From positions 1-60,120 of the IMG/VR virus record IMGVR_UViG_3300020044_003577: 60,120 nucleotides of DNA, one strand, 5' to 3'. The notes under the pieces are model-generated. The model was not told the DNA's origin. It searched no databases and was given only the letters and a program-made list of their open reading frames with translations. Numbering within the stretch: the stretch's first letter is position 1; each line of letters begins with the position of its first letter. Shown piece by piece: positions 5,862 through 60,120 of this stretch. This stretch comes from a virus. The position numbers were made by a program, and so were the translations under genes.

Positions 5862-7502
5862 CTATATCCATGTTGTTTCTAATTGTTGAAAGTTCCCCAT
5901 CTTTTGTGTAAAAGGAACATTAGTCGTTGTTAGTCTATCTCCGTGTGTCCTGATCACTTCCAGAGCAATAGCAAGAGCGATAACGGTATCATCATTGTGA
6001 CCAACAATAGCATTTGTCCTACCATTGTCATCAGCCACATAATTCATTAACTCCCCAATAATAGTTCTTGAAGGTATCCATATTTCCTCTTGTTCAATAG
6101 CACTCTTAAGAAATCCAATAATAGCTGGCTTAGAGGATGTTGTTGTTCTCCAACCCATCCTTAATCCCTCATCCTTGGATACATTAGCCATCTTAGTCTG
6201 ATAATACATATTAACATAGCCCATTTGAACTAGTCTATTTAATGTAGCAATACCCATACTATTAGATTCTACCGCCATTAAAGCGTTATTATAGTATCTT
6301 CCTAGATAAAACAATAGATCCCCAAACTTACTGGGATCAATCATATTATTTCTGTATGTAGCACATACCTCTTTATCTGCATTCATAACTACCGCAGCAG
6401 AATGATCTTTACCTACCCCTAAGGATACGTCCGCAGCTATAACAAAAGATTGATCAAAAGATGGATATTTAAATATCTCAATGGAACCCTGCCTAGCATC
6501 CTCCATCATCATACTCTCAAAGTTAAATTCTCTCTGAGCTAATATTGGTTGTGGTATTAAACTATTTAACTTTTCAATATTAAATACATTAGAACCTGAA
6601 ACAATAAAGGCTTCTTCAGGAGTCGCTGGATACTCTTGTTTAAACTTGTCTACCCCACTCTCAGCTATCTTGAGTCTCCTCCAGTATAGTTGATCGTTAT
6701 CTAGGTTAAACCTTGTAACTAATATCTCTTCCTCATCTGTTCTCTCAAACCCCTCAGGTGCCTTCCTACGATATTCAGACATAAGAAACCAAGGTACGAA
6801 TATAGGTATATATTCATTCTTACCAGCTACAGCATCTATCCATAGTCTATGAAATGAATTACCTACCCCATTGGCAGTACTCTCAAGAATAACCTCGGTA
6901 CCGTCTGCTTGGGAAATACCCTGAAATAATCCTGCTAAAATTTTTTCATCATGGAGCCAAAAGGATACTTCTGAAAGATGTGCGATTGTAGGCGTAATAC
7001 CCCTACCCGCCTCAGGAGAACCTGCTGTATAGAGTCTATAACCAGAGTCATTATGTTCAAACATAATCTCTTTTGCGTTAGATCTTTTTAGAGTAGGTGA
7101 GAATGACTCAGGCATATTAGAAATAATATTCCTGGACATAGTAAACAAGGCATCAGATGTTGCGGCATCATGAGCCATAACAACTGACTTGTTGTAAGCA
7201 TTAAAATAAGACTTCCAGAATACTCTACCAGTAGTATAGGTAGAAAGACCCATCTGTCGGGCTTTTAGGATAATAGCCCTGACTTTCCCAGTCTCCTTTA
7301 GTTGACCCTCAATCGCATCATTAACAATCTTTTGTGCATCGTTAAAGTCAAATGGTTGGAATCCTAGTCGGGAGTCTTTGGGTAGAATCTTGATTTGCTC
7401 TTTCGCAAATAATTCAAAGTTATTTTGGTATTCTGCGAGTTTTTCTCTGCGCTTTAGTTCCCTTAAAGCCTCTAGCTTGCGGGTGTTTGAGATAGTTGTC
7501 AT
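5862..7502 (-). CDS. terminase large subunit
   Basis: 546 aa. It has a Walker-A-like KARQMGLST and a C-terminal RNase-H-like nuclease with acidic motifs (AADVSLGVGKDHSAAVVM, GHNDDTVIALAIAL). It is the first gene after late promoter copy P1. Confidence 0.85.
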   Translation of the reverse strand: MTTISNTRKLEALRELKRREKLAEYQNNFELFAKEQIKILPKDSRLGFQPFDFNDAQKIVNDAIEGQLKETGKVRAIILKARQMGLSTYTTGRVFWKSYFNAYNKSVVMAHDAATSDALFTMSRNIISNMPESFSPTLKRSNAKEIMFEHNDSGYRLYTAGSPEAGRGITPTIAHLSEVSFWLHDEKILAGLFQGISQADGTEVILESTANGVGNSFHRLWIDAVAGKNEYIPIFVPWFLMSEYRRKAPEGFERTDEEEILVTRFNLDNDQLYWRRLKIAESGVDKFKQEYPATPEEAFIVSGSNVFNIEKLNSLIPQPILAQREFNFESMMMEDARQGSIEIFKYPSFDQSFVIAADVSLGVGKDHSAAVVMNADKEVCATYRNNMIDPSKFGDLLFYLGRYYNNALMAVESNSMGIATLNRLVQMGYVNMYYQTKMANVSKDEGLRMGWRTTTSSKPAIIGFLKSAIEQEEIWIPSRTIIGELMNYVADDNGRTNAIVGHNDDTVIALAIALEVIRTHGDRLTTTNVPFTQKMGNFQQLETTWI

Positions 7503-7517
7503 GGGGGTTTCGTTATA

Positions 7518-7541
7518 GTTTCTCTATTAGGGGACTACTCT
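7518..7541 (-). promoter_or_regulatory. phage-RNAP promoter motif copy P1 (late arm, upstream of TerL)
   Basis: The minus strand reads AGAGTAGTCCCCTAATAGAGAAAC, with core GTCCCCTAATAG at 7524-7535. It is about 20 nt upstream of the TerL ATG. The TAATAG(G/A) end resembles the T7 class III ..CTATAGGGAGA. Confidence 0.6.
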
Positions 7542-7590
7542 TTATACTTTTTTCTATAGCCCCTTAGTCTTTGTGTGTGAAAAAGAATCA

Positions 7591-7977
7591 TGGGTTTGTT
7601 TGTTCTCCCCTCCCTGTGTCGTGTGACCCCCCTGTCTCGTGGTGGTCGGTCGTGCTGCGGTGTCGGGTCGTTCTTGTCTCTCTTCCTCTGTCGGTGGTGC
7701 TGTGGCGCTGGTGCTGTCGACTTCCTTTGTTAGCGCTGTCTTGGAGTTCATTATGCGTTCTATCCTCTTGTTCGTTTGTCTTCGCCGTGGTTTTGGTTTG
7801 TCCTTCTCTACTGCCTGTGGTCACTTGCTTAATGCTTGGGGTCGTAGTGAGTGGTACAGTGACATGTCTACTGTTGACCTGTTCCTGTTGGCTACTCGTA
7901 AGTCTTAAGGGCTTTCTCGGTTGGCTCCTTGTGGGGCTTTCCGAGAGCGTCTTGCTCTGTTCTAAAAGGGGTTTGTT
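7591..7977 (+). other. adenine-depleted, strand-asymmetric non-coding leader
   Basis: By my count there are 2 A in 7591-7720, 7 A in 7591-7800 and 34 A in 7591-8040. The rest is T/G/C. Because stop codons need A (or T on the other strand), all six frames are open, which explains the four overlapping track ORFs here. Confidence 0.85.
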
Positions 7978-8193
7978 ATGTCTTCTTCTTTTGTTGTCTA
8001 CGCTGTGTCTGCCTCTGCTCCTCAGTGTGTTGTTGCTAGCTTTGATACTGTTGCTGAAGCTAATGCTGCTGCTTGGTTGGCTAACTCTATCGATAATACT
8101 TGTGACTATCGTGTTGATGAGGTCTTGCTTGGTGACTTGCTTTGTTCTGAGTGGAAGACCAAGGAGAGAATGTCAGGATACGAATTACTTTAA
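7978..8193 (+). CDS. first early protein (71 aa, net acidic), unknown function
   Basis: ATG preceded by AAAAGGGG. The composition is protein-like (MSSSFVVYAVSASAPQCVVASFDTVAEANAAAWLANSIDNTCDYRVDEVLLGDLL..) although its codons continue the A-poor bias. Confidence 0.55.
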   Translation: MSSSFVVYAVSASAPQCVVASFDTVAEANAAAWLANSIDNTCDYRVDEVLLGDLLCSEWKTKERMSGYELL

Positions 8194-8205
8194 TAAGATC
8201 TCTGC

Positions 8206-8247
8206 CTATTGGGTGTAACAACCCAATGGAGAGCGATCTTGCTCTGT
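8206..8247 (+). promoter_or_regulatory. early intergenic hairpin module 1
   Basis: Hairpin ATTGGGT/ACCCAAT (8208-8214 with 8221-8227), loop GTAACA. It is followed by hairpin AGAGC-GATCTT-GCTCT (8230-8245). The second hairpin has a near-copy, AGAGC-GTCTT-GCTCT, at 7944-7958. No U-tract follows. Confidence 0.35.
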
Positions 8248-8274: not shown

Positions 8275-8472
8275 ATGTACACAACCCTTAACATCCTCAC
8301 TGCATTTCTGTGGTATAGTGCTGCTGCATGGTCTATCGATGCTATCTATGTCGAAGGTCAAGGTGGTTTGCTACCTATCTTCGTATTGCTAGGATCAGGT
8401 GTGCTTGCTGGTATGCAATCAATAGACTTGATTCGTGATCTTAAAGACAAACACAACCAAGGAGAACTGTAA
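8275..8472 (+). CDS. small membrane protein (65 aa)
   Basis: AAGGAG RBS; two hydrophobic segments (ILTAFLWYSAAAW, LLPIFVLLGSGVLAG). Confidence 0.7.
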   Translation: MYTTLNILTAFLWYSAAAWSIDAIYVEGQGGLLPIFVLLGSGVLAGMQSIDLIRDLKDKHNQGEL

Positions 8473-11718: not shown

Positions 11719-11744
11719 CTCTAGTTGTCCCCTAATAGGGAATT
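11719..11744 (+). promoter_or_regulatory. phage-RNAP promoter motif copy P2
   Basis: CTCTAGTTGTCCCCTAATAGGGAATT, core at 11727-11738. It fires into the AT-rich tract and then antisense through 11845..12225 toward the SSB gene. Confidence 0.55.
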
Positions 11745-12244: not shown

Positions 12245-12269
12245 GTATCCCTATTAGGGGACTACTCAA
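12245..12269 (-). promoter_or_regulatory. phage-RNAP promoter motif copy P3
   Basis: The minus strand reads TTGAGTAGTCCCCTAATAGGGATAC, with core at 12251-12262. It is 26 nt upstream of the ATG at 12225. Confidence 0.6.
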
Positions 12270-32025: not shown

Positions 32026-32131
32026 GGGTAGTAATCGTAGACCTACTGATGAGAAGAAATACAAAGATAACTACGACCAGATCTTTGGTAAAAACAAACA
32101 ACCAGTTAAGGAACAATCTAATGGTAAATAA
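32018..32131 (+). CDS. small basic protein (37 aa) with KYKDNYDQIFGK motif
   Basis: Hand-translated MSKGSNRRPTDEKKYKDNYDQIFGKNKQPVKEQSNGK. A Y.DN(Y/W)D.IFGK motif is recalled from small ORFs of many phages. Confidence 0.5.
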   Translation: MSKGSNRRPTDEKKYKDNYDQIFGKNKQPVKEQSNGK

Positions 32132-32582
32132 TATTTCTGTAGTACTATTACCTCTACGTAATCTTTTTGCAGATAACTTTACTGTATACTACAAGTCACA
32201 TGGTTACCACTTTAATGTTGAAGGACCAACATTTGCTCAAGATCACGAGTTATTAAACGAGATTTATGATTTCCTTTGGGCGCAACATGATGGTTTAGGT
32301 GAACAATTACGTCAGTTAGATAAGCCAGCATTACCTTCTCTTAAAGCTATCTTAGATACTACAGAGATTCTTGAGTGTAATAAACTAGGTGAGTCTAGCA
32401 AAACTATGTTTACTGAGTTATGTAATGACTTTGAAATACTAATTCAAAATGCTCAATCATTATTTGAGGTAGCTGATAAAGCTTGTTATGGTGGTTTGAA
32501 TACTTTTATTGGTGACTACCTTAGAGACCTAAGTAAACTACATTGGAAAGTAAAAGCAACTATTGGAAAGAGTTTTAAATGA
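32121..32582 (+). CDS. Dps / ferritin-like protein
   Basis: LRNLFADNFTVYYKSHGYHFNVEGPTFAQDHELLNEIY......D.LGEQLRQL matches the Dps helix A/B pattern. ATG at 32121 with an AAGGA RBS (the track start at 32049 is rejected). Confidence 0.6.
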   Translation: MVNNISVVLLPLRNLFADNFTVYYKSHGYHFNVEGPTFAQDHELLNEIYDFLWAQHDGLGEQLRQLDKPALPSLKAILDTTEILECNKLGESSKTMFTELCNDFEILIQNAQSLFEVADKACYGGLNTFIGDYLRDLSKLHWKVKATIGKSFK

Positions 32583-45069: not shown

Positions 45070-46188
45070 TTATTTAAAAAACTTACCTACCATCCAACAT
45101 ACTACTGAGTATCTTGTTCCTTCTTCTACATCTTCTACCCCATGCATGATAAAGCTTGGGAATACTAAAACTGTACCTTTAGATTGTGGAGGATAAAATC
45201 TTTCATAACCATTTTGTAAATAAAATTTTCCACCTTTAAAATCGTCATTAAGGAAAGCTAACACAGTAAGCTTACGGCAATTATCCCCATGAGCTAAAAA
45301 AGTATCTACATGAGACTTATAACGACCGCCAGCAGGATAAATTAAAAATTCAGCTTGATTAGCATGTGTAATATCAAATTTCCATGCTTCATGGTTTGCT
45401 AATAATCCTGCTGCAGCCAATCGACCACCAATATCTTTATAAGTAGGTAGCATAACTCTTTTTACATTACGAATAGAAGTATCAACAACACCATTACCTC
45501 TACCAATAACGGGTAATTCTTTAGGTACTTCATCTTTTGTATACAATTTAATTAAAGAATCGCAGGCTTCTTTAGTAAGAATGTCTGTGTAAACAAAATG
45601 TTGAAGCTCTTGGTTTGCTTGACTGGGCAAATTTAAACTTTGACGTTTGTCAAATTTCCATTCTGCATGTGGACCATCAGCATCTACATAATGCAAAAAC
45701 ACTTGTGCTTGCCAATTACCTTTAAATTTTTTACGCCAATGATGTTTCTCCATACCACGATAAAGAACAACATCACCTACGCCCATAATAATTTTAGAAG
45801 CGTTTTTTTCGTTTTCATCGCCCATGTATATAGGCCATGCTTCACCATCAAAACCTAAAGTAATAGTTGCACTAATTTCGCAAGACTCTCTATCAGTATG
45901 GATCTTTAACTTTTCTCCAGTTTTGTATAATCGAGCATAACTGTAAGTAGGGTAAAGTTGTTTACCTAATACTTTTTCAAAGTGCGGCAAAAGGTCAACT
46001 AACAATTTATCAAACGCCATAGCACCATGAATTGCTTCTGATGTTGGACATTGATCATCTTTGTGAGTTGCTTTTCCGTCAACTAACCGTTTTAACTCGG
46101 CAGTAAATTCATTACAATTATTGATATCTAAAAAGTTTTTCAAATGCACATACTTCTCTTGTGCAAACTGAATTAAGGGTGTATTCAT
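45070..46188 (-). CDS. tandem 2OG-Fe(II) oxygenase domains (C-terminal one prolyl-4-hydroxylase-like)
   Basis: N-terminal domain: KIHTDRE ... GMEKHHW. C-terminal domain: YKSHVDTF...RKLTVLAFLNDDFKGGKFYL...VLVFPSFIMHGVEDV..GTRYSVVCW (HxD...H...R). Confidence 0.75.
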   Translation of the reverse strand: MNTPLIQFAQEKYVHLKNFLDINNCNEFTAELKRLVDGKATHKDDQCPTSEAIHGAMAFDKLLVDLLPHFEKVLGKQLYPTYSYARLYKTGEKLKIHTDRESCEISATITLGFDGEAWPIYMGDENEKNASKIIMGVGDVVLYRGMEKHHWRKKFKGNWQAQVFLHYVDADGPHAEWKFDKRQSLNLPSQANQELQHFVYTDILTKEACDSLIKLYTKDEVPKELPVIGRGNGVVDTSIRNVKRVMLPTYKDIGGRLAAAGLLANHEAWKFDITHANQAEFLIYPAGGRYKSHVDTFLAHGDNCRKLTVLAFLNDDFKGGKFYLQNGYERFYPPQSKGTVLVFPSFIMHGVEDVEEGTRYSVVCWMVGKFFK

Positions 46189-57026: not shown

Positions 57027-57941
57027 TTAAATCAATCCGTTAGTATTAAAGTTAACTTGTACGTTACCACCAGATGCTCTACGCCATTTTTCTTCTTTAT
57101 TGAGTGAGAACACATTTTCATTAAATCGTTTCTCATAACGTTGTTCCATTATATGGTCAAACATGTATGCACCTAAGTTATATAAAGCACCCCATACAAC
57201 TAGTCTTTCATTATTATCTCTTAACCAATTAGATACTTCTTTACCAATATAGTATTTAGTTGTTACTGTAGCATTGTATGCAGCAGCCTCTGCGTATGTT
57301 GCAAAACATCTTGTAACAGAAGATGCAGTAGAAAAATATAGTGGAGTGTCAGTAGTTATACCTGTAAGTGTTAAATAGGGTTGATCAGCATCTGACAAAG
57401 CAATTAAATAGTTAATTGGTATAACACTATAAAGAGCATTTAATGCAGGTAATCTACGATAATAATGTATCTCTACTTCTGCACCTACTGCTAGCTGAGG
57501 ATGAATATAGATTTTACCGTCTTTCCACATCCAGTTATATACAGAATATTTTTCTGAATATAAGTCAAAGAAGGTACGTGTGTCAGTAACCTCATTAAAT
57601 ACCTTACTTACATTAGAAGGGTAGGTAGAGTATGCTGTACCAATATTATCTTGTGCTAAAGTTCTAATATAAATAAATTGGGTTAAGTCTTCAGGAATAG
57701 CAAAAGAAGTATAAGCATTACCATAAGGCATACCTAAACTATTTTCTCCTGAATTATCTGCAGTTGCAACTGTATATACAACAGTAGCTTCTAATGGAGG
57801 AATACGTAGTTGTCTGTAGCATTCGTCAGCAGAATAAGATAAGCAATCCTGAATAACAACATCTGGAATATTGTTGATATCTTGTCTACCAGACCATGTT
57901 CTAACTTTTGCAATAAGTTGGTCATATTTAGGTGTGCTCAT
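57027..57941 (-). CDS. virion protein, paralogue A (304 aa; head-tail adaptor region)
   Basis: The N-terminus MSTPKYDQLIAKVRTWSGRQDINNIPDVVIQDCLSYSADECYRQLRIP is clearly homologous to the next gene upstream. Confidence 0.65.
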   Translation of the reverse strand: MSTPKYDQLIAKVRTWSGRQDINNIPDVVIQDCLSYSADECYRQLRIPPLEATVVYTVATADNSGENSLGMPYGNAYTSFAIPEDLTQFIYIRTLAQDNIGTAYSTYPSNVSKVFNEVTDTRTFFDLYSEKYSVYNWMWKDGKIYIHPQLAVGAEVEIHYYRRLPALNALYSVIPINYLIALSDADQPYLTLTGITTDTPLYFSTASSVTRCFATYAEAAAYNATVTTKYYIGKEVSNWLRDNNERLVVWGALYNLGAYMFDHIMEQRYEKRFNENVFSLNKEEKWRRASGGNVQVNFNTNGLI

Positions 57942-58636
57942 ACTGTTACCTTTCTAGTGTTCTGTGCAGCAATAGCTTGCTTAATATCCAATGGTAACAA
58001 CGAACGAGCTTTATCTTCTTTAAGATTCAGCATATCAATGTTCTCAAGCGCCATTTCTTTATAACGCATTTTAGATGTATCATCAAATAAATACGCAAAC
58101 AAATAAGATAAAGAACCCCATAACAAAATGTATTCTTTATCGTCACGTAGCCAATTGTAAGTTTCAACTCCACCATTGTCCGATGAATCTAATGCACCAA
58201 GTTTACGATAAAATGTGCTTTCAATAACTGTTCCAACAGGAAGCTGTGGGTAAATATAAATATATTCGTCACGCCACATCCAACTATAAGTATTATCTAA
58301 CGGCTTATACTGTTCAAAGAAACCCTTTTTATCTAGTGTTTCTACAAATCGGTAATTATTATTAGTAGGTGACACACAACGTATTGAAAGAAATTCAATT
58401 AAACTAGTTGGTACAGCAAATTGTGTGTATGGTTTACTTGTGTTAATATTATCACCAGAAATAACAGTGTGGTTTTCTGTGTGTTCTAATTGAGGCGTAC
58501 GAAGTTTTTGATAACAGAAATCAGCAGAATAGTTTAAACAATCCTGAATGACGCTGTCGGGTATAGTTGCTACTTCGGGTTTATTACTCCAGTCTCTTAC
58601 TTTAGCGACTAAAGCGTCAAATCTAGGTGTTGCCAT
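57938..58636 (-). CDS. virion protein, paralogue B (232 aa)
   Basis: MATPRFDALVAKVRDWSNKPEVATIPDSVIQDCLNYSADFCYQKLRTP. The motifs YSWMWRDEYIYIYPQLPVG versus YNWMWKDGKIYIHPQLAVG and NWLRD are also shared. Confidence 0.65.
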   Translation of the reverse strand: MATPRFDALVAKVRDWSNKPEVATIPDSVIQDCLNYSADFCYQKLRTPQLEHTENHTVISGDNINTSKPYTQFAVPTSLIEFLSIRCVSPTNNNYRFVETLDKKGFFEQYKPLDNTYSWMWRDEYIYIYPQLPVGTVIESTFYRKLGALDSSDNGGVETYNWLRDDKEYILLWGSLSYLFAYLFDDTSKMRYKEMALENIDMLNLKEDKARSLLPLDIKQAIAAQNTRKVTV

Positions 58637-59333: not shown

Positions 59334-60120
59334 TCAAGCGCCAGATAAACCGAAGATCATACCACAACCCTTGGGGTTACGGCATTCTAATGTACCTTCT
59401 TCAACGATTTGACCGATGATAGAGTCACCTAATTGACCTAAGTCAACTTCTTGTAGAGGACGTAAAGAAGCATAGCTGAACCACATTGGATCATATAAGA
59501 ACGCAGTGAAGTTAGCTGTGTCGTTTAGACCAGAAACAGTAGTATTAGAAATACCCATAACATAGTTAGGAACAACCATGATATCGCCGAAGTCGGACAT
59601 GTAAATCTCAACTGACTGACGGAGTTTGCCGTCTTGGTCAATGTTACGGCGAACGTTACCGTCACCAGCATTGCTTGAGCTAGAGCCAGCAGACTGTGCC
59701 TTAGCAGAGAATACACGGCGGTTAGCAGGAGACAACATTAGTTTAGTAGCTTTACCACCGTTTTCGTAAATAGCTTGCATAACAGTGTCAACATGTGACA
59801 AAGCTAAACTGTTTTTATCAGCGCCAGTAACAGTAGTGAAAGTACCAGCAATACCACCGCCTGGATTAGTAGGAGCAGTATACTCGCCTGGAGTGGTTAA
59901 CACATTAAGTGCTGTGGCAGGAGTAGTAGTAGCTGCAGTGTAGTTAACCCATGCTTGGTAACCACCAAAGGTACGAGTACCAGAGCCGTTAGAGCTGTCC
60001 CAGCTGTTAACTAAGTCGAACTCAACGTCACGGCGTAGTTCGGTACCACGCTTTTTAAGTTGATATGCGTATTCGTCAGCAACACCAGCTTGGTCAACAG
60101 CACGTTTAGTACCAGTAACA
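59334..60120 (-). CDS. major capsid protein, C-terminal part (the frame runs off the window end; 60000..60120 duplicates 1..121)
   Basis: The frame stays open upstream of the track start (59903) all the way to 60120 and is continuous with 1..450. Total length is 1116 nt (371 aa). Confidence 0.8.
   Translation of the reverse strand, partial: VTGTKRAVDQAGVADEYAYQLKKRGTELRRDVEFDLVNSWDSSNGSGTRTFGGYQAWVNYTAATTTPATALNVLTTPGEYTAPTNPGGGIAGTFTTVTGADKNSLALSHVDTVMQAIYENGGKATKLMLSPANRRVFSAKAQSAGSSSSNAGDGNVRRNIDQDGKLRQSVEIYMSDFGDIMVVPNYVMGISNTTVSGLNDTANFTAFLYDPMWFSYASLRPLQEVDLGQLGDSIIGQIVEEGTLECRNPKGCGMIFGLSGA
60000..60120. repeat. second copy of the circular-assembly overlap
   Basis: Identical to 1..121. 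Confidence 0.9.

Follow-up and report, generated by a model that had tools for sequence, protein, structure and literature searches.

In phage T7, the early genes lie near the left genome end, and the logic of this arrangement is that the first-entering segment must survive host restriction until anti-restriction proteins have been made, with Ocr (gene 0.3) following immediately. The T7 left end itself has a normal composition, each base occurring at least 11 times per 130 bp, and carries the E. coli promoters A1-A3. The pac, cos and DTR regions (for instance the pac sites of P22 and SPP1 inside terS, and the T7 concatemer junction) occupy the terminase-adjacent late/early junction and consist of sequence motifs and TerS-binding repeats. 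Restriction-site avoidance by phages, in turn, removes specific words such as GATC or CCGG. Here, we analyzed a window of 60,120 bp, comprising a whole IMG/VR virus genome, in which a segment at this same junction has lost nearly all of one base from one strand.

The phage belongs to the CRP-7-type Roseobacter podoviruses; its replication module and RNA polymerase (RNAP) are T7-like, and its TerL is of the T4 family. The terL gene (5862-7502, minus strand; Terminase_6N/6C, phrog_2) is the first of the late block, and its product is 57% identical to TerL of Roseobacter phage CRP-7, a cultured podovirus of the RCA lineage. Portal and scaffold genes are present, the MCP and adaptor are SU10-like, and the T7-like module comprises a gp2.5-like SSB, a family-A DNA polymerase, a 5'-3' exonuclease, a primase-helicase and a single-subunit RNAP; a B12-dependent RNR is encoded as well. 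A small terminase (TerS) was found nowhere in the genome with PHROGs or Pfam, and a T4-family TerL, a T7-like replication and RNAP module and an SU10-like capsid are thus combined in one genome in which no TerS is detectable. Auxiliary genes include a 2OG-Fe(II) oxygenase/ferrochelatase-like gene at 45070-46188 (minus strand; phrog_2954/phrog_61) and a gene for a ferritin-like protein at 32049-32582.

An adenine-depleted element between the late and early blocks

On the minus strand, the late block begins with TerL (ATG at 7502) and continues through the portal, scaffold, capsid and tail genes and around the record end; the early block extends rightward from about 8275. Exactly where the two diverge, about 85 bp from the TerL start codon, lies an element at 7588-8056 (plus strand) with 37 A in 469 bp (7.9%), compared with 31.4% A over the whole window; its strict core, 7591-7749 (plus strand), holds 4 A in 159 bp. 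In other words, the early-sense strand is A-free and the late-sense strand T-free, apart from these few residues. The initial annotation had placed the depletion at the early/late divergence, where the end of a T7-like genome is to be expected, and this position is borne out; its counts of 2 A in 7591-7720, 7 in 7591-7800 and 34 in 7591-8040 are exact. It was also right that the other three bases are abundant (107 C, 127 G and 182 T in 7591-8040, i.e., 24%, 28% and 40%) and that the early arm to the right of the element is rich in A (0.33-0.41). We scanned the base composition of each strand over the whole window, as the initial annotation had proposed, and the depletion in 7591-8040 is unmatched elsewhere: all other 130-bp windows contain at least 14 A each, and the lowest count of any other base per 130-bp window is 8. 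The depletion at 7588-8056 is real and far beyond chance, the binomial probability being 9.5e-19 for 2 or fewer A in 130 positions and 1.1e-34 for 34 or fewer in 450. All six reading frames had been described as open, which holds strictly in the core only, scattered A giving rise to a few stops in the wider region.

Contig breaks are frequent near the element, as an artefact of assembly or sequencing might produce. We rejected this explanation as next to impossible, since 73 independent IMG/VR contigs carry the element, as do Logan contigs from 4 public runs and the genome of the isolate CRP-7.

A strand without A cannot contain any word with both A and T, in either orientation, and therefore neither sigma-70 -10/-35 boxes nor a phage promoter core can occur inside the element. 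It has no TpA or ApT steps, its TG/GT steps are doubled, and its GC content is 51% versus 37% for the genome; its duplex stability is close to the top of the genome (rank 4 of 597 windows). Folding is weak for its late strand, and its A-free strand can fold. These properties would suit a structural element, either one that insulates the divergent promoter clusters from each other or one on which a strand-specific SSB or primase lands: the GC-rich, TpA-free duplex would be stable, and the late strand, once melted, would offer an unstructured A/C-rich single strand. However, insulation could be had from many simpler sequences, we identified no protein that might bind, and the primase-like words GTC and GGTC occur in the element at compositional expectation; we regard a structural role as unlikely. 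A cluster of primase sites was rejected on the same GTC/GGTC counts. No GC-skew switch, and hence no replication-origin signature by skew, was found at the element, and it matched no Rfam family (e-value mode).

The loss of A was also expected, in the initial annotation, to exclude all palindromic sites containing A/T. The density of 4-bp palindromes in the element is indeed the lowest in the genome (21/kb versus 57/kb; rank 0 of 597), but this shortage is fully explained by the exclusion of A together with the genome-wide absence of CCGG and CGCG, and no site-specific selection beyond these two was detected in it. As a pattern of the whole window, CCGG and CGCG are missing altogether (0 each), although a first-order Markov model predicts 31 and 17 occurrences; GGCC is scarce (o/e 0.32), and TCGA has an o/e of 0.26 relative to base composition, with GATC near 0.74-1.0. 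These figures suggest genome-wide selection against certain GC-only restriction sites. The Chi-like word GCTGGTGC noted at 7707-7714 is present as described, but such octamers occur in the element at the compositional rate (1 observed versus 0.6 expected), and recombination control by Chi was rejected on this count, which refers to the E. coli word; the host is an alphaproteobacterium. The exact octamer GCTGGTGG of E. coli is in excess when the window is taken as a whole, with 8 occurrences versus 0.5 expected from composition, and near-Chi words are 3.5 times commoner on the minus strand; this is probably codon-driven.

Composition and sequence of the element among relatives

For the comparison with close relatives, we considered 80 loci with a TerL identity of 80-98%, of which the 73 with enough flanking sequence were scored. 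All 73 carry a T-free stretch on the TerL strand, located 85-1300 bp upstream of TerL and measuring 129-1303 bp (median 418), with a pooled TerL-strand composition of 40% A, 28% C, 24% G and 8% T. The close relatives therefore keep the depletion rather than showing a normal composition at this locus, which was the second part of the composition check that the initial annotation had called for. The stretches consist of degenerate short direct repeats rich in A, C and G, and alignments among them are poor, many indels having a length not divisible by three. Indeed, the element evolves much faster than TerL, with identities of 52-69% and frequent indels versus identities of 77-96% for TerL. On the late strand, differences involving T make up 18.5% of the substitutions in the element versus 60% in TerL, where C-T transitions dominate; those in the element are mostly interchanges among A, C and G. 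Because the sequence changes fast and T-involving differences are nevertheless rare, we reasoned that selection acts on composition and not on sequence. On the substitution pattern, it is the composition that persists, through selection or some lasting strand-specific process, as the sequence itself drifts.

A few short motifs are shared at the edges. Just below the element, at 7521-7538 (minus strand), lies the promoter-like motif GTAGTCCCCTAATAGAGA, a putative phage-RNAP promoter for TerL, which is conserved; the genome has GTNGTCCCCTAATAG at 7 sites, this one included. The motif is followed by a conserved boundary block at 7567-7589 (minus strand), reading GATTCTTTTTCACACACAAAGAC on the late strand, at which the T-free stretch of relatives has its proximal edge; the boundary motifs on their TerL-promoter side are AGGGGGG and this same block. 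A further motif at the proximal edge, AGGGGGGTCACAC on the late strand (7620-7635, minus strand), occurs in 72/73 segments from relatives. At the distal edge, a hairpin-like motif CAGAGCAAGACGCTCTCGG (7941-7959, minus strand) recurs in relatives, in the form CAGAGCAAGA(C/T)CGCTCTC. Beyond it, a 20-bp inverted repeat at 8195-8240 includes a second copy of AGAGCAAGATCGCTCTC (8229-8245, minus strand).

The element takes a different form in the lineage of CRP-7 (TerL 88-100% identical to that of CRP-7). In CRP-7 itself, an A-free stretch spans 57350-58106, with 0-2 A per 100 bp on the strand opposite the late genes. In this lineage, 2.3-3.7 kb of DNA with gp63-gp71 separate TerL from the T-free stretch upstream of it, which is the 5' part of gp72 and encodes a disordered N-terminus there. 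As an explanation for the window's element, we considered a gene that uses T-excluding codons to encode a charged, disordered protein, and for gp72 and its homologues this is true: their substitutions are enriched at the third position (41 versus 23/24 and 40 versus 20/22), indels among them restore the frame, and the charged, disordered N-terminus is nearly identical (P0004:1-40). Even in gp72, however, the absence of T at synonymous sites is left unexplained by coding, these sites still avoiding T (7 T in 450 nt). In the window's lineage, a gp72 homologue is absent, and in a comparison with five relatives, substitutions favored no codon position in any frame and indels of 1 bp and 10 bp were numerous; the T-less ORFs there also have differing amino-acid profiles. 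Considering that codon-position bias is lacking and indels are not in triplets, the element of the window's lineage is non-coding, and we rejected the protein-coding explanation, which holds only for CRP-7 gp72 and is very improbable here.

The distribution of the element has limits in both directions. In one CRP-7 relative (IMG/VR contigs L153/L172; TerL 94% identical), gp01, gp72 and the T-free stretch are all missing from the 8 kb scanned upstream of TerL, so that some genomes can do without the element. Ordinary sequence of about 650 bp stands at the late/early junction there in place of gp72, gp01 and the T-free element, and the junction is a hotspot of gene turnover. No similar stretch was found in distant TerL relatives (34-46% identity), T7, P-SSP7 or the RCA phage CRP-6; the element is thus frequent in the group, not universal. 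A C-poor 130-bp window (4 C) does occur in Prochlorococcus phage P-SSP7 (NC_006882) at about 28939, inside the internal core protein gene gp15, which makes it a coding low-complexity case of a different kind. In both lineages that carry it, the element directly adjoins the beginning of the early block, on its late side, irrespective of which genes separate it from TerL.

Genome ends, packaging and transcription

In a linear genome of the T7 type, the ends would fall between the TerL-first late block and the early block, and from this position we infer a genome end at the element, which we regard as plausible if somewhat short of probable. Contig ends are in part consistent with this: 4 IMG/VR contigs stop 0-20 bp short of the TerL ATG, others end inside the element, and the linear CRP-7 record ends inside its own A-free stretch. 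The Logan contigs of the 4 public runs break at several positions in the element and none spans it completely, though contigs cannot show the ends of molecules. In about a dozen complete relatives (58-64 kb, 98-100% complete and labeled as linear in IMG/VR), the assembly crosses the element without a break, and the records end at arbitrary positions away from it. No terminal or direct repeat flanking the element was found. The window does have an exact end overlap of 121 bp (1-121 and 60000-60120), on which its IMG/VR label as DTR is based; this overlap falls between the scaffold and MCP genes, in their spacer, and its most likely origin is circularization by the assembler, not real termini.

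The contigs that end just before the TerL ATG could also result from read-start pile-ups at a pac-like signal, i.e., a composition-defined site next to TerL that the terminase would read on the concatemer to initiate packaging. In the window's lineage the element does abut the TerL promoter and start codon, and since no TerS was found, recognition by the terminase might be unusual; the same result leaves the site without the adjacent TerS gene (PHROGs, Pfam) by which headful pac sites are known. Against such a signal, the element of the CRP-7 lineage is separated from TerL by gp63-gp72, it is absent in L153 and L172, and no known terminase recognizes DNA by the absence of one base. On balance, we consider a packaging signal unlikely.

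We also considered a requirement at the level of RNA, in which a transcript must lack U (in the late direction) or A (in the early direction), with escape from U- or A-specific ribonucleases (e.g., HEPN-type defence RNases) or avoidance of termination as the possible gain. The gp72 mRNA of the CRP-7 lineage is U-poor, as the T-free stretch of the late strand there opens the gp72 coding sequence; moreover, a leftward RNA without U cannot form intrinsic terminators, which is why the terminator-like GC hairpin within the window's element (7690-7721, plus strand) is terminator-like rightward only. In the window's lineage, however, nothing obviously transcribes the element: no promoter is possible inside it, the TerL promoter points away from it, and an RNA made rightward, with the sequence of the A-free strand, would be U-rich and hairpin-capable. 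The distal leftward promoter-like motif at 12251 (minus strand) is followed just downstream by a strong terminator-like hairpin at 11838-11807 (minus strand), and we therefore found no plausible transcript through the element in this lineage, which leaves a requirement of the RNA as an improbable explanation. As an observation in its own right, the motif at 12251 faces a second one at 11724 (plus strand), both of the conserved phage-RNAP type, and this facing pair is also present in two relatives (G001 and G002) at a spacing of about 525-566 bp; together with the hairpin, the motif at 12251 suggests a short regulatory or antisense transcript.

The description with the best support is that of a non-coding junction element whose composition is constrained. 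The explanation of its role that we favor, tentatively and as a possibility well short of probable, is a genome-end or junction segment that is free of every recognition motif containing A and T and is thereby inert and uncleavable at entry or packaging. Selection keeps the early-sense strand A-free, and the late-sense strand T-free, and lets the sequence inside slide and mutate. The outcome is a 'motif-free' zone in both orientations, with no promoter, TpA step or A/T restriction or modification site, in the form of a GC-rich and very stable duplex. A terminal segment would be the first to be handled during genome entry or packaging, and would have to stay inert and uncleavable at that stage. 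This, our best guess at why the element is selected, generalizes the restriction-proof leader of the initial annotation. Speaking against the motif-free segment are the ends of complete relatives, which lie elsewhere, the lack of a DTR at the element and of a TerS gene, the lack of a conserved anti-restriction gene beside it, and its absence from L153/L172.

The more specific analogy with T7 and Ocr in the initial annotation did not hold up. The 71-aa ORF that it named as a small acidic first gene exists (P0001; 7978-8193, plus strand), but it is only mildly acidic (net -6), is restricted to the closest relatives and is not Ocr-like. The first conserved early ORF (8275-8472, plus strand) instead encodes a 65-aa hydrophobic protein of a MYT(I/T)LN... 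family, and the gene adjacent to the element varies among relatives, an acidic 57-aa ORF lying there in some of them only; no anti-restriction gene next to the element is conserved among the relatives. The T7 leading end, for its part, has an ordinary composition and promoters, as described above.

The selective agent that we infer could also be base-specific. One strand, as single-stranded DNA or RNA, would then escape machinery acting at individual A (or T/U) residues, such as a host-defence nuclease, deaminase or modification enzyme, or an enzyme injected by the phage itself. We give this only a small chance; if true, the element would be a base-specific immunity zone at the genome end, and as such a new counter-defence or end-protection element.

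Relation to known systems

A literature search for A-free or T-free phage regions returned nothing relevant, and we found no earlier description of a phage element in which one strand excludes one base and it is this composition that is conserved. The elements known from site avoidance and from termini act through specific words; the present one would be categorically new if the agent is base-specific. If it is a genome-end element, phage termini could be protected or specified by composition alone, which would offer a route to evade sequence-specific defences or to meet a requirement of end processing. In addition, the junction that the element marks is hypervariable, and its fragments break metagenomic assemblies, a point of relevance to completing the genomes of this abundant group of marine phages. 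The question is directly testable with the cultured relative CRP-7.

With the T7 left end, the locus shares a T7-like replication module and RNAP and early genes that would lie near a genome end, but promoters such as A1-A3 are impossible in an A-free strand, and no conserved acidic gene adjoins the element in the place of Ocr. As in phage restriction-site avoidance, the element has no A/T palindromes, and CCGG and CGCG are absent genome-wide; here, however, a whole base is lost from one strand over hundreds of bp and at one locus only, far beyond what a list of sites would call for, and restriction avoidance alone would need only the particular sites of the host to be removed. The pac, cos and DTR regions occupy the same junction and differ in that they are made of motifs and repeats, the element showing single-base exclusion with little sequence conservation. 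Diversity-generating retroelements likewise bring about A-specific change, but they randomize A positions, whereas A is eliminated here over hundreds of bp; mutagenesis of this kind was rejected, as the genome has no reverse transcriptase (RVT_1 domain) and no TR/VR repeat pair. Telomeric G-strands (yeast TG1-3, Tetrahymena TTGGGG) are A-free, G/T-rich strands at a chromosome end, but they lack C and form regular tandem repeats with dedicated proteins, whereas the A-free strand of the element is 24% C and irregular. Finally, the stretch in CRP-7 gp72 (MK613349) differs from the window's in coding for a disordered N-terminus, the window's stretch being non-coding and its genome without gp72; both have in common the same strand-specific exclusion of T at the late/early junction, beside the early block.
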